From sequence record DRR723986_6279: a stretch of 39,976 bases of DNA; one strand, written 5' to 3'. The notes beneath the pieces are model-generated. The model saw only the letters and a program-made list of their open reading frames with translations. It was not told the DNA's origin and searched no databases. Below, in pieces: positions 32,062 to 39,976 of this stretch (positions are counted from its first letter, which is position 1; every line of letters begins with the position of its first letter). The position numbers and the translations under genes were made by a program.

Positions 32062-34443
32062 ATGCCCTTTAAAACCCGCCTATTTTTAGCCATTTGTCTA
32101 AGCTTTATCTCGTGGACCTCCCAAGCTCAAAACACCTACAGCATCAAAGGACAAGTCGTTGAGGCAACCGGAACCGGAATTGAATTTGGTAATCTGGTGC
32201 TACTTTCTATAGATGATTCTTCCCTTCTAAAAGGCACCCATATTTGGAACGGTGAATTCGAATTATTAGGCATTGAACAGTCCGATTTCATTTTAAAAAT
32301 AACGGCTCCTGGTTTATCGCCATTTTTTCAAAATCAGCAATTATCCGATACCAGTTTAGCCGATCTCGGAACCTTGGTGATGGAAAATGCCAACTTGGAC
32401 GTGGTTGAAGTAGTACATTATGTGCCCATGTTTCAACGCGAAGTCGGCAAACTGGTGGTCAATGTGGAGGGCACCATGCTGCAAGAAAAAGGCACCATTA
32501 AAGACTTATTGAAAAGCACACCCAATGTATTGGTGAAAGGCAATTCAGTTGAAGTTGTTGGCAAAGGGCCGGCAATTCTTTATTTAGATGGACAACGCGT
32601 TTTCTCATTAGAAATGATCTCCTCTATTTCGGCAACAGACGTTCACAAAATTGAAGTCATCACTAATCCTTCTTCTAAATATGATGCCGAAGGTAATGCC
32701 GTGATTGAAATCATCACTAAAACCGGCGCGAAAAATGGCTATCAAGTGAGTCTAGGATTAAGAGGGATGCACCGCACCGATTCGCAATTTGCCTACTGGT
32801 TTAACCTGAGTTTAAAAAAGAATTGGTTCACCATGTACGCTTCTTACGGTCAATATAAAGGCACCATTTATGAAGATGAATTTTATTTCAGAGAAGTGTT
32901 TGGCAGCCCCAACATCACCATGGAAAATGATGTGTTGAGAGCCATAAATTACAAGCTCAATAATTGGATGTATTTGGATACCGATTTTGATTTGGATTCA
33001 GTTTCTACCTTGTTTTTGAGCTATACGGGGTCGATTTCTCAACAAGAAGTGAACACCGATAACCTCAACCAATTGTTTGCAGATAGTGTCTACTCTGGAG
33101 AATTAGCGAGTAATTCTTTTGAGCGTCCTAAAAAGAACATGCATTCAATTTCTGGCGGATTTGTGCGAGAGTTGGACTCACTAGGCTCTGAATTCAGGAT
33201 TGTGGGCCAATTCACCAATTTTGACTTTAACTCGAACAGCTCAATTGTCCAAAACTCGATCTTCACTACCAACACAATCAACGAATTTAGAAGTGATAAT
33301 TTCAATGACATTCGCATGATTTCTGGACAAGCGGACTTCAACAAAAACTTTGGCGAAAAAATCAACTTATCTGTTGGATTAAAAAACGCCTATGTGACCA
33401 ATGCCAGTGGGATTGATTTACAAAGCCGCCAAAACGATTCGTGGGTGTCTGACTCTAGTTTTTACAATGAATTTGATTACACCGAAAATGTCTCAGCCGC
33501 GTACGCAGAAATACGAGGACGCCTAAATAAGTTCTCCTACTCATCAGGAATTCGTTATGAATGGACCAATGTAGAAGGCAACTCTTATGTCGCGGGTACT
33601 GGAATCGTCAGTCAATCGTATCATAACCTGTTCCCGAATTTGCAAATGAACTATGACTTTACGCCAGATTTGATCATGGGACTCTCCTACATCAACCGTA
33701 TACAACGCCCGAGTTTTACTGACTTAGATCCATTCATCAGTTTTGTAGATTCATTGACCTCTTTTAGCGGCAATCCTAAATTGCAGCCCTCATATGCCCA
33801 CAATCTAGAAATGAATTTGGTGTATATGGAATACGCATCCATCACTTTAGGCTATTCAAAAGCCTTTAATCCCATGTACTTAACTGTGATTCAAAACCCC
33901 GGCACCAATACCTTTAGCGCCTTGACTCAAAACATCTCCTCCAGCGAAACCTATTCCATTGGTTTGGTAATCCCATACGAATGGCCTTGGTGGACGACTT
34001 TTAATGCATTTGGTTACAGCTGGAATAATTTCAAAATTGTAGATGATGCCACCACCGTGTTGAACAACGAACCCACTTGGTATGTGAGTTTATGGAATGA
34101 ATTCCGTTTCAAAAACATCTGCACAGTTGAGCTCTCTTATGAATATGTCTCCCCAGGTTCGCAAGGCTTTTTCAATGCCAAAAGTTATCAATCATTCGGG
34201 GGCAGCATTTCCCGTGCGTTTTTGAAAGATGCCTTGAGTGTGCGTTTCAGTGTTTTTGACTTGTTCAAGCAAGAAATTGAACGCGCAGAATCAGCCTTAC
34301 CGAGTTTCAATGTCAGCTACCGTTCATGGGCAGATACCCGCAGCTTTATGTTGACCCTCATTTATCAATTTGGCAAACTGGCGGATGACAGTATGAAGGC
34401 CACGAGCATTGATGCTGACACCAAAGATCGAGCGAGGGATTAG
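32062..34443 (+). CDS. Outer-membrane beta-barrel family / TonB-dependent receptor-like protein
   Basis: Carboxypeptidase-regulatory N-domain, plug motif IEVITNPSSKYDAEG, RIQRPSF.DLDPF, GNPKLQP, C-terminal LIYQFGK. Confidence 0.88.
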   Translation: MPFKTRLFLAICLSFISWTSQAQNTYSIKGQVVEATGTGIEFGNLVLLSIDDSSLLKGTHIWNGEFELLGIEQSDFILKITAPGLSPFFQNQQLSDTSLADLGTLVMENANLDVVEVVHYVPMFQREVGKLVVNVEGTMLQEKGTIKDLLKSTPNVLVKGNSVEVVGKGPAILYLDGQRVFSLEMISSISATDVHKIEVITNPSSKYDAEGNAVIEIITKTGAKNGYQVSLGLRGMHRTDSQFAYWFNLSLKKNWFTMYASYGQYKGTIYEDEFYFREVFGSPNITMENDVLRAINYKLNNWMYLDTDFDLDSVSTLFLSYTGSISQQEVNTDNLNQLFADSVYSGELASNSFERPKKNMHSISGGFVRELDSLGSEFRIVGQFTNFDFNSNSSIVQNSIFTTNTINEFRSDNFNDIRMISGQADFNKNFGEKINLSVGLKNAYVTNASGIDLQSRQNDSWVSDSSFYNEFDYTENVSAAYAEIRGRLNKFSYSSGIRYEWTNVEGNSYVAGTGIVSQSYHNLFPNLQMNYDFTPDLIMGLSYINRIQRPSFTDLDPFISFVDSLTSFSGNPKLQPSYAHNLEMNLVYMEYASITLGYSKAFNPMYLTVIQNPGTNTFSALTQNISSSETYSIGLVIPYEWPWWTTFNAFGYSWNNFKIVDDATTVLNNEPTWYVSLWNEFRFKNICTVELSYEYVSPGSQGFFNAKSYQSFGGSISRAFLKDALSVRFSVFDLFKQEIERAESALPSFNVSYRSWADTRSFMLTLIYQFGKLADDSMKATSIDADTKDRARD
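34367..34443 (+). repeat. Direct repeat copy 1 (3' end of beta-barrel gene)
   Basis: 77 bp, 66/77 identical to 36786-36862. Confidence 0.95.
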
Positions 34444-34607
34444 ATAACTGGAATCTTGACTAATCACCTCTTGCGGGAATTACGGTTTTCATTTTCGGAT
34501 TCTACTGTTTTTTGAAAATCAAGTGGTTATGAGTTAACAAATCTTTGTTTTTATTTGACATATTTAGGGAATGAAATTAATGCTGATTTTTAAAACCCTA
34601 GCAATTT

Positions 34608-36725
34608 ATGATCCAATCTAGTGTAATATCCAAAACTCTTACTTGCATAATACTATTCGTAATAACTGGCTGCACATTTATCAAGAAGCCACCTATAAAA
34701 GAAATTCCTGACTCGATACCAAATATTGAAACGTCTCGAATTTCTATTCCCATTATCGTGGATATTGAAAAAATTGAAAAAGCAATTCTTGAGTCAATAG
34801 AGAATCCCATTGCAAACGGTAAAACTGACGAGCTTGACATAAAGATTCTTGCTACAAAGAAAATCACTGAAAGACAACTAATAAAGAAACTATTGGAACC
34901 AGCAAAACCCGGATATTATGTCACAAAATATAAAAATGTTGAAAAAAAAGTGTCCAAAGCATTCAAATGTATGTTAAAACCCTGGAAATGGGGCAAGTGT
35001 TATAAAGATGTGATTGAGGTGGTCAAAGTTCCTTATGATATGTGGATTGAGCCTGTGGAAGCTGTGTATGGATATGTTTCAGAAGACATTACAAAGTTGA
35101 TTGATAAAACTTTTGATATCTCTGGTTGGCTAAATTACAAAGCAAATGTTCAATCTTTTGATATGGACATTAATGGCAACGTTCTTAACTCATCAACAAA
35201 ATTAAAAATCGACCTTTCGTTGGATTACAAACAAAATGCATTCCCTTTTGGACCAGATATACAAATCAATGGTGCGTTGACTTGCACAATCGAAGCTGAG
35301 ATTAAAATTAACGGAACTATCAATATTGGAGAGAATGCTGATTTACTAATCAATCTACCTGACAATGGCGGGGAAATCAATTTCACAAAAATTTGCCTAC
35401 CAGAAGCTATTGAAGTGTTCGATATTGTATCATTGATGAGCCCTATATTAATGATAACAAAAGATCAGATTGGAAAAAAACTAGATCAGAAATTAACTGA
35501 AAAAATAATTGAAGAAATAAACGATAAACAAGGAGACTTAAATTTTAAAGATGAGGTTATCAAAAATGCTACTGCAGCCTCAAAGCCAAATCTGATTGGT
35601 GAAAATGTTTGGCTATTACCAAATGTAAAATCTCTGGAGTACACGGATATTAATGGTGAAAATGGAAAATTAAAGTTTCAGCTTGCTCTAGAATGCACTC
35701 CAGAAATATTCTATTCGAAGGAAGAATTTAAAATAACTCCAAATAATGCTCCCGTTGTGTTGAGAAAAGTAAATTCCATCAATCCAAATACTCAACTTTT
35801 GATTGATGCTTCAATTTCATACGAAGAAGCCGAACATTTGTTAAACACTGAAATCGCCGACTTCCAAAACTCTAAATACCCCAAAAACCCTTATTACTTG
35901 GCAAATTCGCACCTTTATCCTTCAAATGAAAAAATTGTGATCTCCCTTGATTTAATTAAAAAAAAGAACAACAAACGAAAACTAAGGTTGTATGCCTGGG
36001 GTATACCCAAGTATAATGCCGAAAGCAGTGAAGTCTATCTTGACAGTTTACAATTTACACTCCAATCTAAATCCGCAATACTTAAATTCTTGACAGCTAT
36101 TTTTGAAAAAGAAATCATTGAAAAACTTGCAAAAACTTCTATCTGGAGTATTTCTAATGAAAAACAGAAAATTCTTCAAGAAATCAGTGATATAAATTAT
36201 GTAAATGAAGATTTTATAATTTCAGGTGGATTCAATCGTTTAGACCTTATTGAGGTGTTCACAACAAAAGATAAGTTCAAAGTATTTGTTAAAACTACAG
36301 GACAAATAATAATGGAAATAGATCCATTAGGCTCGCAAAAAATCGTTTCGGATATGAAAGAAATATCCAAGATGGAATCACTAAGCAACCTTCGTTTTGT
36401 TGCGGACGATCATTCAAGCACTAATTATGTAAGTGAATCATTTAATACAATGTCAACGTTCGCAAATTCAATGGAAATTGAATATTTACCTAAAGAAGAA
36501 ACAATCAAATCTATTGAGTCATCATTTTTTGAAGATCTTCTAATTATGACTGGTGATACAATATATCTTGACGAAAAATTTGAAAATTATAGAATTGCTG
36601 AAGATAAAGATGCGTCTTCAGCTGGTGACACCTTATATTTCATTAATCACAATAATGAACTTTTATTTCATGTACTTAGTTTTGAAGATCTTAATAATCA
36701 GCGAAAACAGAGTGAGCCCAAATGA
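34608..36725 (+). CDS. DUF4403-like lipoprotein
   Basis: Lipobox-like FVITGC, SRISIPI N-terminal motif, WLLPN, LYAWGIPKYN and LDSLQF recall DUF4403; extra C-terminal extension. Confidence 0.6.
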   Translation: MIQSSVISKTLTCIILFVITGCTFIKKPPIKEIPDSIPNIETSRISIPIIVDIEKIEKAILESIENPIANGKTDELDIKILATKKITERQLIKKLLEPAKPGYYVTKYKNVEKKVSKAFKCMLKPWKWGKCYKDVIEVVKVPYDMWIEPVEAVYGYVSEDITKLIDKTFDISGWLNYKANVQSFDMDINGNVLNSSTKLKIDLSLDYKQNAFPFGPDIQINGALTCTIEAEIKINGTINIGENADLLINLPDNGGEINFTKICLPEAIEVFDIVSLMSPILMITKDQIGKKLDQKLTEKIIEEINDKQGDLNFKDEVIKNATAASKPNLIGENVWLLPNVKSLEYTDINGENGKLKFQLALECTPEIFYSKEEFKITPNNAPVVLRKVNSINPNTQLLIDASISYEEAEHLLNTEIADFQNSKYPKNPYYLANSHLYPSNEKIVISLDLIKKKNNKRKLRLYAWGIPKYNAESSEVYLDSLQFTLQSKSAILKFLTAIFEKEIIEKLAKTSIWSISNEKQKILQEISDINYVNEDFIISGGFNRLDLIEVFTTKDKFKVFVKTTGQIIMEIDPLGSQKIVSDMKEISKMESLSNLRFVADDHSSTNYVSESFNTMSTFANSMEIEYLPKEETIKSIESSFFEDLLIMTGDTIYLDEKFENYRIAEDKDASSAGDTLYFINHNNELLFHVLSFEDLNNQRKQSEPK

Positions 36726-36785
36726 TTTGATTAAACAATTTTCACCAACAGAAGATCGAAATAAATACACCTTTTACCTGAAAAT

Positions 36786-36862
36786 AATTTGGCAAGCTCA
36801 AAGATGACAGCATGAAGGCCACCAGCATTGATGCTGATACTAAAGATCGGGCTAGGGATTAG
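36786..36862 (+). pseudogene. Direct repeat copy 2: orphan 3' fragment of the beta-barrel gene
   Basis: Encodes FGKLKDDSMKATSIDADTKDRARD* versus FGKLADDSMKATSIDADTKDRARD* in the intact gene; preceded by an in-frame TAA, no start codon. Confidence 0.9.
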
Positions 36863-37029
36863 GGACTTTCTTGTTGCTTTTACATGTAATGCGGGAATTA
36901 CGGTTTTTTTGAATATATGCGTTTTCAAATGGTTAAACCCGTTTAATAGTGAATTTTATTCCCGATATTTAGGGGAGTAAAGTGCAGATGTGCTTTATTC
37001 GCAAGTTACCTGTAATTACAATTTGACAA

Positions 37030-38646
37030 ATGACAAATGAGGTATTATTAAAACTTGGATATATTCCAAAGGAGTTACCACCTCCATTTGAAAGCATCAC
37101 ATTTGCTGAAAATATTAACGGTATTAACTCTGAATGGAATTCTATTTTTAACGGGTTTACTTATGCCCAAAAGCAGAAATACTTCGAGTCAAAATGGGTT
37201 TCTTTTTCTATTCCTAAGGTAAACTTATCACGCAGGATAATTAACATTCCAAATCCACTTCATCAATCCAAGCTTTCTAAAACACTTACAGATCGTTGGA
37301 CCGAAATTGAAACTATTTTTAACAATTCAACCATTTCTTCAAGTTCCCCCATAGTGGACAACAAAGGGAAACGTGCATTAATTCCAAAACATGATTTTGG
37401 AACATTCAAACGAAGAATTCTAAATGAATCTTTTGACAATCTCTATGAAGTTCGAACAGATGTTTCGCGTTTTTACGGAACTATTTACACTCATTCTATA
37501 CCATGGTTAGTGCATACTAAGCCCGTTGCAAAGGCAAATAGAACAGATATGTCAATGTTGGGCAATGCCATAGACAAAGATTTACGAAGTTCTAACTCAG
37601 GCCAGACCGTGGGAATTCCGATCGGCCCAGACACCTCATTAGTCGTTGCAGAAATTATTACCTGTTTAATGGATGAGCAAATCCAGAGCAAACTTCGAAA
37701 TGTAAAATCATTCAGGTTTATAGATGATTATTACCTCTATTGCGACAGTTATGCAGATGCCGAAAAAGCATTCAAATTCATCCAATCTTTGTTAACCGAA
37801 TTCCAGCTGGATATAAATGAAGAAAAAACAAAAATTTCAAAGGCTCCATTTGCTTTAGATAGCAAATGGTCAATTGAATTAGGCTCTTTCACTTTTAGAA
37901 AAAATCCAAAAACTCAATTGACTGACATTGAAAGATTTGTAAGTCTTTCCTTGATTCACTCGGCAGATTCACCTAAAGATTCTGTCTTGCTATTTTCAAT
38001 TAAAGTTTTGAAGTTCTTACCCCTTTTTAGTGAGAATTGGGATACATACGAATCGTTAATATTGAAATTAGGAATGACCGAACCAAGGACTTTACCTGAT
38101 GTAACAGAGATTTTAGCTTCTAACAAAAATCGAATATCCAAGCGAAAAATTAAAAGCGTAGTTGAAAAATTAATTGCAATTCACTTACCGAAAGGCCATA
38201 ATTTTGAGGTTTCATGGGCGCTTTGGATTTGCGTTGAATTTCAAATTAAATTAAAGAATAAAACAGCCGAAAAAGTCTTTGCTTCGAATGATTTGATTTC
38301 AATATTAATTGCTCTTGATCTTAAAAGTAAGAATTTGATTAATTCAACTGTTTCCACAAATGAACTACTCTCCGAATTGTCGGAAGATTCACTAATGAAT
38401 GAAAATTGGTTATTTACTTACGAAGCAATTAAAAAAGGCTGGCTATCTGTGCCTACAAACCCAATAGAAACAAATGAATACTTCAAAATTCTTCTTGAGA
38501 AGGGCGTATACTTCTACAAGGAAGATGCTAATACTTCAACCTACAATGTTCCTACACCTCCGAACTCACAGGAATCAACAACACAAGCACAAACTCCAGA
38601 TACTGCTTCAAACATTGTGATTGGTGGCTTTGGTGGAGGCTATTAA
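37030..38646 (+). CDS. Abi-like (AbiK/Abi-P2-related, class 1 UG/Abi) reverse transcriptase
   Basis: GYIPKELPPPF, FSIPK...RR.I.IPNP, TDVSRFYGTIYTHSIPW, QTVGIPIGPDTS, FRFIDDY, INEEKT; helical C-terminal half. Confidence 0.88.
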   Translation: MTNEVLLKLGYIPKELPPPFESITFAENINGINSEWNSIFNGFTYAQKQKYFESKWVSFSIPKVNLSRRIINIPNPLHQSKLSKTLTDRWTEIETIFNNSTISSSSPIVDNKGKRALIPKHDFGTFKRRILNESFDNLYEVRTDVSRFYGTIYTHSIPWLVHTKPVAKANRTDMSMLGNAIDKDLRSSNSGQTVGIPIGPDTSLVVAEIITCLMDEQIQSKLRNVKSFRFIDDYYLYCDSYADAEKAFKFIQSLLTEFQLDINEEKTKISKAPFALDSKWSIELGSFTFRKNPKTQLTDIERFVSLSLIHSADSPKDSVLLFSIKVLKFLPLFSENWDTYESLILKLGMTEPRTLPDVTEILASNKNRISKRKIKSVVEKLIAIHLPKGHNFEVSWALWICVEFQIKLKNKTAEKVFASNDLISILIALDLKSKNLINSTVSTNELLSELSEDSLMNENWLFTYEAIKKGWLSVPTNPIETNEYFKILLEKGVYFYKEDANTSTYNVPTPPNSQESTTQAQTPDTASNIVIGGFGGGY

Positions 38647-38661
38647 AAAATTCATTGCGTT

Positions 38662-39867
38662 TTGGAAAAGCAGAATAAAATAAGAAAGAGTTTTGATCAT
38701 ATTCTAAGTGATTTTCAACCAAATTCGAATTATACCGAAAAGTGGACTGATTTAGGAAATGGTCGAAAGGTACTGAAAAGATATTCAGTCAAACTTCCAG
38801 AAAATGAGCGTATAAAGTTTCCTTTTATTGTCAACCTAATGTTTTCAAAAATTCTCAATTATCCTGTTTTACCGAGATTTGAGAAGGTGGCCTGGGAGAT
38901 TCCAATTCTGTATAAAAACGAAGCTTTTGTCTTAGCCCATAGAAAATTCGGTTTTGACATTTCTGCCACTGAAGAAGCCGACAAATTAAAAAAATTAGCT
39001 GTCGAAGCAATTTCTCAAATAAACAAAGCTATACCTCTAGTCGAAGCCTTAATTAATCCAATTGTTAAGGCACAAGTTCAAAAAGGACATCTCACTATTG
39101 AGAGTAAGTTCACCGAAATAAACAACAGATATATCTTTTTCAGAAATAAGCTTCAAGAAACAGAATCATCAGAACTAATAGAACTAAAACAAAAAACTAA
39201 AAGTTTTGATTGGCAAAATTTTAATTCCACGGATGAAGCCCTAATAGCATATAATGAAATTGAAAGACTTAGTAACTCAAAATCATACTATTTATATTCT
39301 ATGGTAGACTCATATTTCAGTTTACTTGAACACATTTCAGTCCTCGTGCCACCTTTCTTATCTCATTTGAAAATAAGTGAAATGAATGTTGAAGAATTCA
39401 TGCGTAAAAATTGGAAACAAAAGCTTCAAACAATTTTAAACCACAAAAAGAATCCAGAAGCCAATCAAAAAATTCAAATCTTAGAAGAAATAAAAGAACA
39501 AATACGGAATCCAATTGCTCATGGACATTTTGTTAAAAATGGTAGATCATTTTTTGTTCACATGAAAGGCTTAGGCGCCATTCCTTTCACATTGACAGAG
39601 TCGGTTTCCAAGTATCGATTCGAATATTCTCAAATGGATTTCCTTTCATTTGAGTTAGTACGTAAGCACTTTGACGATTTTGATGAATTTCTTGAAAGAA
39701 CAAATACTAAATTCGCTATGAAGTACATCAAGCATGATTTACCAGTAGCATTCGACAAGAATTCTTCTACAGAATATAGGAGAAGAATGAAAACTGAAAA
39801 CTCAACGGATAATTATATCAAAGCTACAATTCAGCAATTAGAGAATTCAAGAAACATGGATTGGTGA
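38662..39867 (+). CDS. Putative HEPN-domain protein
   Basis: TTG start 15 bp after RT stop; helical region with DSYFSLLEH and RNPIAH (R282-H287, nt 39505-39522). Confidence 0.6.
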   Translation: MEKQNKIRKSFDHILSDFQPNSNYTEKWTDLGNGRKVLKRYSVKLPENERIKFPFIVNLMFSKILNYPVLPRFEKVAWEIPILYKNEAFVLAHRKFGFDISATEEADKLKKLAVEAISQINKAIPLVEALINPIVKAQVQKGHLTIESKFTEINNRYIFFRNKLQETESSELIELKQKTKSFDWQNFNSTDEALIAYNEIERLSNSKSYYLYSMVDSYFSLLEHISVLVPPFLSHLKISEMNVEEFMRKNWKQKLQTILNHKKNPEANQKIQILEEIKEQIRNPIAHGHFVKNGRSFFVHMKGLGAIPFTLTESVSKYRFEYSQMDFLSFELVRKHFDDFDEFLERTNTKFAMKYIKHDLPVAFDKNSSTEYRRRMKTENSTDNYIKATIQQLENSRNMDW

Positions 39868-39976
39868 AAAACTACAGGTAACATATTAAGTAAAATTCAC
39901 ACCCTCCCTTGTCCAGCGCAAAAAGCTACCTTTAGTTTGTCCAATATCTTGGGGTTCCACGCAGGAATTGCCAACG

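Follow-up and report, generated by a model that had tools for sequence, protein, structure and literature searches.

A DRT4/DRT6-type reverse transcriptase and a candidate HEPN-like ribonuclease in one integron-type cassette: one defence system or two?

Introduction

When two candidate defence genes lie back to back between a single pair of boundary sequences, do they form one system or two? The question is raised by the end of a 39,976-nucleotide stretch of DNA from sequence record DRR723986_6279 (hereafter the window), where a reverse transcriptase (RT) of 538 aa is followed, 15 nt later and on the same strand, by a 401-aa protein with an RxxxxH motif (the partner). A sequence-only reading of the window had taken the pair for a 'split AbiA'-like operon, in which an Abi-type RT senses infection or controls a separately encoded HEPN RNase. 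The follow-up analysis described here argues for a different reading, to which we give a probability of about 0.6: the two genes are autonomous defence modules of one gene each, brought together in a composite cassette of the integron type.

Layout of the Locus

Both open reading frames, their common orientation and the short gap between them proved to be as first described (Table 1). The partner would begin at a TTG codon, a start that is credible because the N-termini of its homologues line up with it. Upstream of the pair, the duplicated remnant of a 793-aa gene is 77% identical to window positions 34367-34489, with a further match, in G001, the nearest genome available for comparison with the window, to the tail of the orthologous gene and the region downstream of it. 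The leader element that comes after it is likewise conserved, with window positions 36919-37031 being 89% identical to G001 contig C307 (11455-11344), and in the alignment with G001 this conservation stops at ...CGCAAGTTA, which is the cassette boundary. At the far end, the attC-like dispersed repeat has five full-length counterparts, 74-84% identical, on three contigs of G001, along with a shorter match of 37 nt at 89%, and alignment places the beginning of each copy directly after a ...TAAC box.

Table 1. Features at and around the RT-partner cassette (window coordinates).
Feature	Position	Strand	Remarks
Duplicated remnant of a 793-aa gene (32062..34443), from its 3' end and the sequence downstream	36786..36907	+	
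Conserved leader element	36906..37004	+	stands ahead of a slot's first cassette
5' cassette box, GTTACCTGTAATT	37005..37017	+	begins 25 nt upstream of the RT ATG; inverted repeat I16
RT ORF, 538 aa, DRT4/DRT6-type class 1 UG/Abi enzyme by sequence	37030..38646	+	ATG start
Spacer, 15 nt	38647..38661	+	holds no boundary box, terminator or repeat
Partner ORF, 401 aa, unnamed family	38662..39867	+	TTG start; unknown-fold N-terminal domain, helical C-terminal part with RNxxxHG at 282-288
3' cassette box, AACTACAGGTAAC	39870..39882	+	complements the 5' box at 12/13 positions
attC-like dispersed repeat (start only)	39883..39976	+	cut by the window end at 39976

The earlier statement that no terminator or repeat separates the genes stood as well: between positions 36500 and 39976 there are no terminator-like sites, shuffled sequences giving a mean of 1.9, and no Rfam family reaches threshold, so that no retron-like or other non-coding RNA match lies beside the RT. 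Together, the 15-nt gap, the lack of a terminator and the single cassette suggest that RT and partner are expressed and moved as one unit, with mobilisation shared and co-transcription probable. Expression and mobility as one unit is also the look that a genuine two-gene system would be expected to have.

The Reverse Transcriptase

By sequence, the RT counts as a full-length member of UG/Abi class 1, related to the Abi enzymes and of the DRT4/DRT6 type, and the initial assignment to the Abi-type RTs is upheld both by PADLOC models and by alignments to solved structures. The best PADLOC model is Drt4 PDLC02177 (705.9 bits, residues 1-524 of 538), with Drt6 PDLC03748 second (569 bits); a further Drt4 model, PDLC03752, scores no more than 279.8 bits, and the NCBIfam equivalog for Drt4, at 258.6 bits, stays below its cut-off of 450. 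AbiK (153.8 bits) and AbiP2 (123.9 bits) are both within the best 25 of the 62 PADLOC families, and AbiA is absent from those 25. Against solved structures of hexameric RTs, the alignment runs over residues 6-502 and takes in both the RT domain and the C-terminal repeat domain, with 243.4 bits for 9wy8_A, an MBP-fused RT hexamer, and 116.7 bits for 21ou_A of UG15. The former is presumably MBP-DRT6, going by the MBP-DRT6 that appears in PMC12783706; a literature search on '9WY8' returned no relevant paper.

All the RT motifs named at the outset are present, namely the FY-type block (FYGTIYTHSIPW, residues 148-159), QTVGIPIG (192-199), D144, and FIDD with D232/D233. When 30 relatives were aligned, D144, H155, D182, D232 and D233 were invariant. 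F230-I-D232-D233 of the RT aligns to Y238-I-D240-D241 of 21ou_A, the Tyr of the YxDD motif being replaced by Phe, and the numbering is validated since Y125, Y238, D240 and D241 of 21ou_A land on Tyr and Asp as published. The RNase site of E. coli DRT4 consists of H160 and D192 (10.64898/2026.10.21.760695); these catalytic residues align to the invariant H155 and D182, and the window RT is predicted to carry the residues of a DRT4-type RNase site.

Published work describes DRT4 as a single-gene system (PMC12783706) with an RNase HD site, a priming Tyr and a sensory C-terminal tail (10.64898/2026.10.21.760695), and DRT4-type RTs in general as single-gene enzymes with a built-in RNase (10.64898/2026.10.21.760695; PMC12783706). 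Moreover, DRT6 expressed alone also makes untemplated, protein-linked DNA (PMC12783706). The priming residue Y125, reported to be absolutely conserved across 174 DRT4 systems (PMC12783706), aligns to K120 of the window RT, in a loop where the alignment is uncertain, and the 30-relative alignment holds no invariant Tyr near K120. Details of the mechanism may therefore differ in the window RT, and class 1 enzymes may prime on Tyr, Thr or Ser (10.64898/2026.10.21.760695).

The Partner Family

The partner belongs to an unnamed family, without a Pfam domain, of at least 1009 representative clusters. Its best 150 relatives are 186-447 aa long, and a search for longer fused forms, itself weak evidence, found none. 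The RxxxxH motif turned out to be family-wide: in R282-N-P-I-A-H287 and the residue that follows it, R282, N283, H287 and G288 are invariant in 28 relatives, and in 68 more distant ones N283, H287 and G288 remain invariant and R282 is kept in at least 90%. The N-terminal domain is marked by a conserved EKxxW...HRKFGF block and has no known relative.

Similarity searches converge on HEPN families at scores below threshold. Residues 245-287 of the partner give 14.6 bits against Pfam Cas_Csm6_HEPN (cut-off 23.4), and seven of the 28 relatives match the same model, also sub-threshold, with a best E of 8.1e-4. For the 68 distant relatives, the sub-threshold Pfam matches are to Csm6_HEPN (3), Csx1_HEPN (2), HEPN_MAE_28990 (1) and HEPN_Swt1 (1), and PADLOC matches of family members, again sub-threshold, are to Csm6, Csx1 or CARF-HEPN models in 14 of 18 cases (best E 5.8e-5). 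The partner itself has no PADLOC, NCBIfam or above-threshold Pfam match and no match to ApeA or another named system. Neither the partner nor any of the 28 + 68 relatives ever matched an AbiA HEPN model in Pfam or PADLOC; with AbiA also missing from the best 25 families of the RT, the 'split AbiA' label is not supported.

The structure model of the partner (pLDDT 86.5, pTM 0.75) has no significant fold match in a Foldseek search of the PDB, the best E being 0.18; the HEPN proteins RnlA (E 0.57) and Csx1 (E 1.1) are among the non-significant hits. A family profile run against PDB sequences retrieved only EnvC coiled-coil noise (E 0.16), and a protein atlas placed the partner with unannotated look-alike clusters only, the score of 0.75 for HEPN_Apea being too low for use. 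Searches of phage records and viral contigs found no relatives. As to the proposal that the partner is a HEPN protein, then, the conserved RNxxxHG motif speaks in its favour and the sub-threshold matches and Foldseek result do not secure it; we infer a self-contained HEPN-like RNase. The HEPN assignment rests on the motif and on sub-threshold matches. A co-fold of RT and partner, run without alignments, gave a score of 0.00 and a mark of 0.34, and says nothing either way.

Linkage across Loci

Co-occurrence of the two genes in other genomes, the check by which the sequence-only reading had proposed to be judged, was absent in both directions. No RT was detected at any of 14 partner loci (tblastn; RT profile), and no partner at any of 80 RT loci (tblastn; partner profiles at E<=10 over all 1564 frames), 43 of which extend at least 1300 nt downstream of the RT. 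The partner contexts comprise these 14 genomic loci and three from plasmids, out of a family with 1009 clusters or more, and a UG/Abi RT was absent from all three of the plasmid contexts. Moreover, no conserved neighbour of the RT emerged across the 80 loci, and DNA homology between the window and other loci spans each gene separately. The neighbour clusters of Mestre et al. 2022 include a HEPN-like 'cluster 79' that is linked to UG22.

Elsewhere, the immediate neighbours of the partner include Hachiman, a PDC-S26-like nuclease, SoFic and TIR, and of ten neighbour proteins scanned, six have matches in defence families, either known or candidate. For example, in two loci of Flavobacteriaceae the partner lies directly behind the Hachiman gene for HamB, with an 8-nt overlap in one (L006) and a 19-nt gap in the other (L007). 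A plasmid copy overlaps by 4 nt an upstream gene for DUF2384, which we take to be an antitoxin-type domain, and housekeeping neighbours occur at two loci (a match to the glycyl-tRNA synthetase beta-subunit family and a CNNM/CBS protein). Since each gene is found alone elsewhere, the pair looks like two separate defence genes and not like a new two-gene system. What survives of the two-gene proposal is a tight, bounded unit; an RT that controls a separate HEPN effector does not agree with the missing linkage.

Cassette Boundaries

The end boxes of integron cassettes are of the GTTRRRY and RYYYAAC type and are complementary to each other within a cassette. Those of the window, GTTACCTGTA...TACAGGTAAC, are complementary and end in GTT...AAC, with the purine/pyrimidine consensus only partly matched. 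They form inverted repeat I16 (13 nt, 92% complementary), and ten nucleotides of the 5' box pair exactly with 39873-39882. When the two flanks were shuffled by mononucleotide, only five of 300 shuffles gave a pair of at least 12/13, and homologous slots of G001 carry different boxes at the same positions, again self-complementary; for both reasons the boundary goes beyond chance. The claim that one complementary pair encloses both genes is thus borne out, and by its sequence features the boundary is that of an integron-type gene cassette.

The boxes are, moreover, of a kind found on cassettes that hold an RT by itself. The 5' box belongs to the same family as those of RT-only cassettes (GTTACCTGCAAT) and the 3' box resembles their 3' boxes (AGCAGGTAAC), so that the partner ORF appears to be nested inside an RT cassette. 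Of the 73 RT loci that could be assessed, 23 have boundary pairs, two decoy patterns giving 2 and 1, and at least 15 of these 23 are RT-only cassettes, including those of relatives 72% and 69% identical to the window RT. A relative of 75% identity (L033) is RT-only by eye; a 1-mismatch boundary pair proposed there is false, as reading of the sequence rules it out. At L085, L080, L099 and L100, the boundary pairs have AT-rich boxes or enclose an opposite-strand ORF. The partner, for its part, forms a one-gene cassette at two of its 14 loci (decoys 0 and 0), and no boundary pair surrounds Hachiman plus partner (L006, L007) or HamA-HamB (L001). One-gene cassettes of both genes speak against the notion that RT and partner depend on each other.

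How common are cassettes with more than one gene? On one G001 contig, the four cassettes examined hold one ORF each, which makes a cassette of two genes unusual in that genome. Two RT cassettes, in each of which Drt6 is the top PADLOC model of the RT, carry more: one (L078) adds a trypsin-like protease, and in the other (L069) a DrmC-like protein is encoded by one of three ORFs. These effector-like genes hint that add-ons recur in the RT family. An attC-like element of ~100-170 nt follows cassettes at L034, L078, L069, L093, L011 and L067 as well as in G001. The integron integrase model TIGR02249 was reached over its cut-off in none of three same-genus genomes (best 114.7 vs 265 bits), and control genomes give similarly weak matches. 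Published work reports that integron cassettes carry phage-defence genes (10.1101/2024.07.02.601719; 10.64898/2026.03.17.712381), among them phage-protective one-gene cassettes with HEPN domains (10.64898/2026.03.17.712381).

Competing Explanations and Proposed Mechanism

If the two genes are indeed autonomous modules, each would act by its own means. By homology, the RT would form a hexamer that makes protein-primed, untemplated ssDNA; a phage SSB-like protein together with a rise in dNTPs may signal infection to it, upon which the RT would turn on its own RNase site and abort the infection. In the partner, the N-terminal domain might sense infection or keep the enzyme inactive, and the RNxxxHG site, once triggered, would cleave RNA. 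The partner ORF may have come to nest in the RT cassette, behind the RT stop codon and ahead of the 3' box; such nesting means that the genes move together, and probably share a transcript, yet stay independent of one another.

There is an appreciable, if minor, chance that the coupling is facultative, with the partner serving as an optional extra effector, or as a second layer, that reacts to the RT, for example to its ssDNA product or to RNA damage that it causes, and that was recruited into the RT cassette since the combination protects better. Its precise position 15 nt past the RT stop, in the RT's own cassette, would be consistent with such recruitment, as would the other effector-like add-ons in cassettes of the same RT clade (L078, L069), the partner's place directly behind HamB, and the co-located accessory genes reported as possible for class 1 UG/Abi RTs (Mestre et al. 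2022, PMC9226505). However, RT and partner do not co-occur at the 14 + 80 loci, each exists as a lone cassette, and DRT4-type RTs are described as already having an RNase effector (10.64898/2026.10.21.760695). A broader idea, which we regard as rather doubtful, is that the partner family is a promiscuous plug-in RNase effector that rides behind unrelated sensors (a DRT-type RT; HamB) and adds a second killing activity triggered by a shared cue, of which exposed ssDNA is an example, with DRT6-like RT cassettes being a platform that repeatedly gains add-ons (HEPN-like, protease, DrmC-like nuclease).

It is also conceivable, but distinctly unlikely, that the partner has no part in phage defence and acts as a toxin-like or addiction gene by which the cassette is kept stable, or has an unrelated function and a chance RxxxxH. 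The absence of any PADLOC, NCBIfam, above-threshold Pfam or significant fold match would fit this, along with the plasmid copy overlapping a DUF2384 gene and the housekeeping neighbours at two loci; yet most of the neighbour proteins scanned (6/10) match defence families, the weak matches are not scattered at random but gather on HEPN nuclease families, and phage-protective one-gene HEPN integron cassettes are in print (10.64898/2026.03.17.712381). As for a conserved, obligate pair of the 'split AbiA-like' kind, with the RT in control of a HEPN RNase encoded by a gene of its own, the tight same-strand spacing and common boundary are what it would predict, but linkage is missing both ways (0/14, 0/80), neither protein resembles its AbiA counterpart, single-gene cassettes of both genes exist, and no fused long form was seen in a search that is weak evidence (best 150 relatives, 186-447 aa), which makes it very improbable.

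Under the preferred reading of two autonomous modules, what had seemed to be a new two-gene RT system reduces to known logic, namely a single-gene RT of the DRT4/DRT6 type plus a separate gene. The partner family, being large, equipped with a HEPN-like motif and found in defence islands and one-gene cassettes, is a good candidate for a new single-gene abortive-infection protein. DRT-type RTs appear to be common cargo of integron cassettes in metagenomes (23/73 loci), at times with nested add-on genes, and cassette boundaries offer a simple test, from sequence alone, of whether adjoining defence genes are one unit or two.

Comparison with Known Systems

Among known systems, DRT6 (UG12) and DRT4 (UG15) are closest to the window RT in full-length similarity to PADLOC models, in the alignment of RT and C-terminal repeat domains to solved structures, and in the single-gene organisation seen in the RT's relatives. 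DRT4 also shares the xIDD motif and the residues aligned to the H/D RNase pair, and the flexible tail of the E. coli enzyme has a counterpart here in a variable C-terminal tail. The window RT differs from DRT4 in scoring below the NCBIfam Drt4 cut-off (258.6 vs 450 bits) and in having F230 for the YxDD Tyr and K120 for the priming Tyr125; it is nearer to 9wy8 (243 bits) than to UG15 (117 bits), and the second gene in its cassette sets it apart from DRT4 and DRT6 alike. AbiA, an RT with a fused C-terminal HEPN, recalls the window in that an Abi-related RT stands beside an RxxxxH protein; however, the window RT is outside the AbiA group (best 25 of 62 PADLOC families), the partner does not match the AbiA HEPN, and the pairing of the two is not conserved.

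Stand-alone HEPN proteins (Csm6/Csx1-type; ApeA, AbiU2-like) differ from the partner in that it reaches no curated threshold, has no significant Foldseek match to a HEPN fold, and bears an N-terminal EKxxW...HRKFGF domain without known relative, but they resemble it in an R-N-x-x-x-H that ends a long helix, in the weak, convergent matches to Csm6, Csx1, MAE_28990 and Swt1 HEPN models, and in contexts of defence islands and integron cassettes. Finally, compared with integron defence cassettes, the cassette differs in its two genes and in the lack of any integrase match above the TIGR02249 cut-off in three same-genus genomes, but it is like them in its GTT...AAC boxes, its cassette-specific complementarity, the start of an attC-like element behind it and its defence cargo.

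The gene pair and its reverse transcriptase

The sequence-only reading placed two same-strand ORFs 15 nt apart at the end of the window, and ORF listing recovered both, encoding a reverse transcriptase (RT) and a protein with an RxxxxH motif, here called the partner (see table). The TTG start of the partner is consistent with its homologues, whose N-termini align with its own. The motifs listed for both proteins were found in the translations, with key residues invariant among relatives: D144, H155, D232, and D233 in an alignment of 30 RT sequences, and R282, N283, H287, and G288 in one of 28 partner sequences. As claimed, no terminator lies in the region of the pair (0 terminator-like sites in 36500-39976), and no Rfam family reached threshold in 36500/36600-39976. 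The complementary boundary sequences were likewise recovered as a 13-nt inverted repeat (37005-37017 / 39870-39882; 12/13 complementary), with shuffles of both flanks yielding an equally good pair in 5 of 300 cases. The window stops 109 nt past the partner stop codon.

The best PADLOC model for the RT was Drt4 PDLC02177 (705.9 bits, residues 1-524, full-length), followed by Drt6 (569 bits), more Drt4 models, UG30, UG14, AbiK (153.8 bits), and AbiP2 (123.9 bits); the assignment to Abi-type RTs thus holds, with the Abi models scoring below Drt4 and Drt6. The NCBIfam Drt4 equivalog gave 258.6 bits, under its cut-off of 450, and Pfam returned RVT_1 only. Among solved structures, 9wy8_A, an MBP-fused hexameric RT, was the best match (243 bits, residues 6-502), ahead of 21ou_A (labelled UG15; 117 bits) and AbiK (63 bits). 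A literature search found no paper naming entry 9wy8; we infer that it is DRT6, because passages of PMC12783706 describe the purification of MBP-tagged DRT6 from Sphingopyxis and passages of a preprint (10.64898/2026.10.21.760695) cite a DRT6 cryo-EM study published by the same group in 2025. The RT is accordingly placed with DRT4 and DRT6 among the class 1 UG/Abi RTs, closer to DRT6, and is a further member of an already known enzyme type.

Coordinates and content of the gene pair, cassettes, and partner neighborhoods (L001-L014, partner loci; L025-L104, metagenome RT loci; G001, nearest genome compared)
Feature	Location	Strand	Content or remark
RT, 538-aa ORF	37030..38646	+	ORF listing
Partner, 401-aa ORF	38662..39867	+	ORF listing; TTG start
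166-aa ORF in place of RT and partner	G001:C307:10885-11385 (L019 1042-1542)	minus	Slot with the most window-like leader element
RT-only cassette	L034		72% identical to RT; 3′ box 2 nt after stop
RT-only cassette	L037		69% identical to RT; 3′ box 8 nt after stop
RT cassette with added ORF	L078 1378-4435		425-aa ORF, trypsin-like protease domain; PADLOC RT-Protease_XI, E 5.9e-23
RT cassette with added ORFs	L069 3874-8687		Three overlapping ORFs: HEAT/ARM-like, DrmC-like, 182-aa unknown
Partner-only cassette	L001		60% identical; boxes 20 nt before ATG, 1 nt after stop
Partner-only cassette	L011 (Thiothrix)		Boxes 36 nt before start, 1 nt after stop
Hachiman downstream of partner	L001 5953-11629		Partner upstream of HamA
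Hachiman upstream of partner	L006 2583-7104		Partner directly behind HamB, 8-nt overlap
Hachiman upstream of partner	L007 2568-7095		Partner directly behind HamB, 19-nt gap
Partner neighbors	L005		PDC-S26-like PD-(D/E)XK protein; DUF6602 protein
Partner neighbor	L011		SoFic
Partner neighbor	L014		TIR protein
Partner neighbor	L002		DUF4238
Partner neighbor, housekeeping-type	L013		Protein matching glycyl-tRNA synthetase beta-subunit family
Partner neighbor, housekeeping-type	L012		CNNM/CBS protein

The partner family

No PADLOC or NCBIfam model matched the partner, and its only Pfam match, Cas_Csm6_HEPN (14.6 bits, below the cut-off of 23.4), covers residues 245-287 and stops exactly at the RxxxxH motif. 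A word-indexed search gave 44 clusters of relatives, and an exhaustive profile search gave 1009 representatives at E ≤ 0.001, of which 780 reached E ≤ 1e-10 and 442 reached E ≤ 1e-30; the best 150 are 186-447 aa long, and none is annotated other than as “hypothetical”. In 68 members sharing 22-58% identity with the window protein, K75, K95, G97, E223, W251, N283, H287, and G288 do not vary, and R282 is retained by at least 90%. Weak matches of these relatives gather on HEPN families of Pfam and PADLOC: Csm6_HEPN was matched by 7 of the 28 aligned members, the 68 members gave Csm6_HEPN (3), Csx1_HEPN (2), HEPN_MAE_28990 (1), and HEPN_Swt1 (1), and 14 of 18 PADLOC member-matches fell on Csm6, Csx1, or CARF-HEPN models (best E 5.8e-5). 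AlphaFold gave a confident model (pLDDT 86.5, pTM 0.75), with a mixed N-terminal domain (~1-145) and a helical C-terminal part in which helix 265-286 ends at R282-H287. A Foldseek search of the PDB returned nothing better than E 0.18 (RnlA, E 0.57; Csx1, E 1.1). Of the earlier identification as a HEPN protein, the RxxxxH motif stands and is conserved; no match to a HEPN family exceeded threshold. With weak matches concentrated on HEPN families and a best Foldseek E of 0.18, a putative HEPN-like protein is the best reading. The family is uncharacterized and merits direct test.

One relative is broken into two ORFs, 268 and 102 aa long (L009 6001-7158). A distant one on plasmid CP115967.1 (L107 5477-7017) shares a 4-nt overlap with the DUF2384 gene upstream of it, a toxin-antitoxin-like layout, and is flanked by a methyltransferase and DEAD-box helicase pair and by an AAA ATPase and helicase pair.

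Linkage in other genomes

The sequence-only reading had named linkage across genomes as its own test, and none was found in 14 partner loci, 80 RT loci, or three plasmid contexts. An RT relative was present (tblastn; RT profile) in 0 of 14 partner loci with 6-kb flanks, drawn from Flavobacteriia, Syntrophales, Desulfatiglandales, Thiothrix, Acidobacteriota, and others. At E ≤ 1e-20 the RT family comprises 909 clusters or more. A metagenome scan gave 542 RT relatives, and of the best 80 loci, which were retained, 0 held a partner relative by tblastn; at least 1300 nt was available downstream in 43 and upstream in 49. Narrow and wide partner profiles (E ≤ 10) matched none of the 1564 stop-to-stop frames of these 80 loci, which also lack any conserved RT neighbor. 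Two of the RT relatives are broken by stops (L052 3637-5303 and L075 344-2190).

Five plasmid records contain distant partner relatives. The three examined lack a neighboring UG/Abi RT; in one of them an unrelated group II intron RT lies at a distance of 2.6 kb. The 81 relatives of G001 included one with the RT clade and none with the partner; the eight same-genus genomes had neither, and of 401 genomes belonging to the class, 1 had the RT. At the DNA level, homology to other loci runs from the RT start codon and ends within the RT, and homology to L001 covers the partner gene alone. Seventeen contexts represent a partner family with 1009 clusters or more.

Cassette boundaries

Integron cassettes and their attC sites have fixed GTT...AAC ends, cassette-specific complementary cores, and an imperfect palindrome ending in the next GTT box. 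These hallmarks are plain in L034, L067, L069, L078, L093, and L011, and the complementary boundary of the gene pair is a cassette edge. Upstream of the RT, window 36919-37031 is 89% conserved in G001; the next elements there are one 166-aa ORF and a copy of the ~100-nt post-partner sequence, with another self-complementary pair, GTTAGCTACC...GGTAGCTAAC, at the positions of the window inverted repeat. This dispersed repeat (window 39868-39976; L020-L024 in G001), ~100-170 nt long, begins directly after each ...TAAC box; five full-length copies and one 37-nt match lie on G001 contigs C307, C43, and C99, are 74-89% identical to the window copy, and behave like the species-specific attC sites of an array of chromosomal cassettes. 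A second G001 slot, downstream of a 793-aa gene, is orthologous to the window slot and consists of three units of one ORF, all having a box pair of their own (GTTAGGGTGC...GCACCCTAAC; one degenerate; GTTACGCTTTGTT...AACAAAGCATAAC) and then the repeat. No integron integrase over the TIGR02249 cut-off was found in three same-genus genomes.

In the window, two copies (34367-34489 and 36786-36907; 77% identity) of the 793-aa gene's 3′ end and of the sequence after it flank a 705-aa DUF4403 gene (34608-36725) absent from G001 at the same place. This arrangement suggests an insertion with duplication beside the cassette slot.

Boundary pairs were sought as GTTA+X6 no more than 100 nt upstream of a start and the reverse complement of X6 plus TAAC after the stop. 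Pairs without mismatch flanked 7 of 73 assessable RT loci versus 0 and 0 for two decoy patterns, and pairs with at most one mismatch flanked 23 of 73 (decoys, 2 and 1). DRT4/DRT6-like RTs are thus frequent integron-cassette cargo in these metagenome loci; no mention of RTs was found in passages of two integron-defense preprints. In 15 of the 23 paired loci at most 61 nt separate the RT stop from the 3′ box, and these are therefore RT-only cassettes. The pair called in L033 (75% identical) was false on reading the sequence; this locus is RT-only, with its own box right after the stop, then ~160 nt, a new GTT box, and the next ORF. The other seven are L069, L078, L075 (RT with an early stop), and L080, L085, L099, and L100, whose candidate pairs have AT-rich boxes or an opposite-strand ORF in the interval. 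L078 and L069 have exact pairs with arms 14/16 complementary and content beyond an RT whose top PADLOC model is Drt6; the L078 protease ORF looks to have a signal peptide. The boxes of L069 and RT-only L068 are nearly identical, and the extra genes were therefore gained or lost within the cassette. On the partner side, 2 of 14 loci are partner-only cassettes (decoys, 0 and 0).

Probable origin of the gene pair

The window boxes, 5′ GTTACCTGTAAT and 3′ aaaacTACAGGTAAC, look like those of RT-only cassettes (GTTACCTGCAAT...AGCAGGTAAC), as does the sequence after the L033 RT stop (“TAA aaaacTGTGGG...”), and are unlike those of partner-only cassettes (GTTATCTTCA...TGAAGATAAC; GTTAGAGTAT...ATACTCTAAC). 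On the simplest reading, an RT cassette would have gained the partner ORF between the RT stop and its own 3′ box, possibly at a short AAAA run present on both sides. With RT-type boxes and an inserted partner ORF, the pair would therefore be a derived composite, so far unique. The two genes form a single mobility unit and very probably share one transcript.

Two autonomous single-gene modules sharing one cassette best explain these observations (probability roughly 0.6). The precise nesting of the partner in an RT cassette, the other RT cassettes with add-on genes, and the recurrence of the partner directly behind HamB (Hachiman HamA and HamB adjoin the family in 3 of 14 loci) would favor a facultative synergy of RT and partner, which we nonetheless consider rather unlikely. 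A partner role outside defense is improbable; 6 of 10 scanned neighbor proteins match PADLOC families, and the neighborhood is the pattern of a free-standing defense-island gene. The conserved “split AbiA”-like two-gene system first proposed, in which RT and stand-alone HEPN protein act together, is very hard to sustain when neither the 14 partner loci nor the 80 RT loci (best 80 of 542) show the linkage.

Comparison with DRT4 and DRT6

DRT4 is described as a single-gene system in PMC12783706, passages of which also present DRT6 alone as carrying out the same kind of DNA synthesis as DRT4 (untemplated and protein-linked) and as activated by the same phage protein. According to passages of preprint 10.64898/2026.10.21.760695, DRT4 holds its own effector RNase, with catalytic H160 and D192 at a trimer-trimer interface, a YxDD motif at Y238, D240, and D241, and a flexible C-terminal tail (508-540) required for phage SSB recognition; another preprint (10.64898/2026.10.27.754916) reports dNTP-dependent RNase activity. 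This numbering is valid for the 21ou_A alignment because positions 125, 238, 240, and 241 land on Y, Y, D, and D.

In that alignment D240/D241 correspond to RT D232/D233. The RT tail (window 38524-38646, residues 499-538) is low-complexity, Ser/Thr/Pro/Gln-rich, and ends in GGFGGGY, its last Tyr being retained by at least 90% of the 30 relatives; the tail may be the counterpart of the flexible sensory tail of E. coli DRT4 or hold a candidate priming residue. In the 21ou_A alignment no Tyr of the RT matches the priming residue, Y125 of DRT4 lying opposite K120. The RNase pair H160/D192 is aligned to RT H155/D182, both invariant among 30 relatives, and an enzyme of the DRT4/DRT6 kind does not need a separate RNase.
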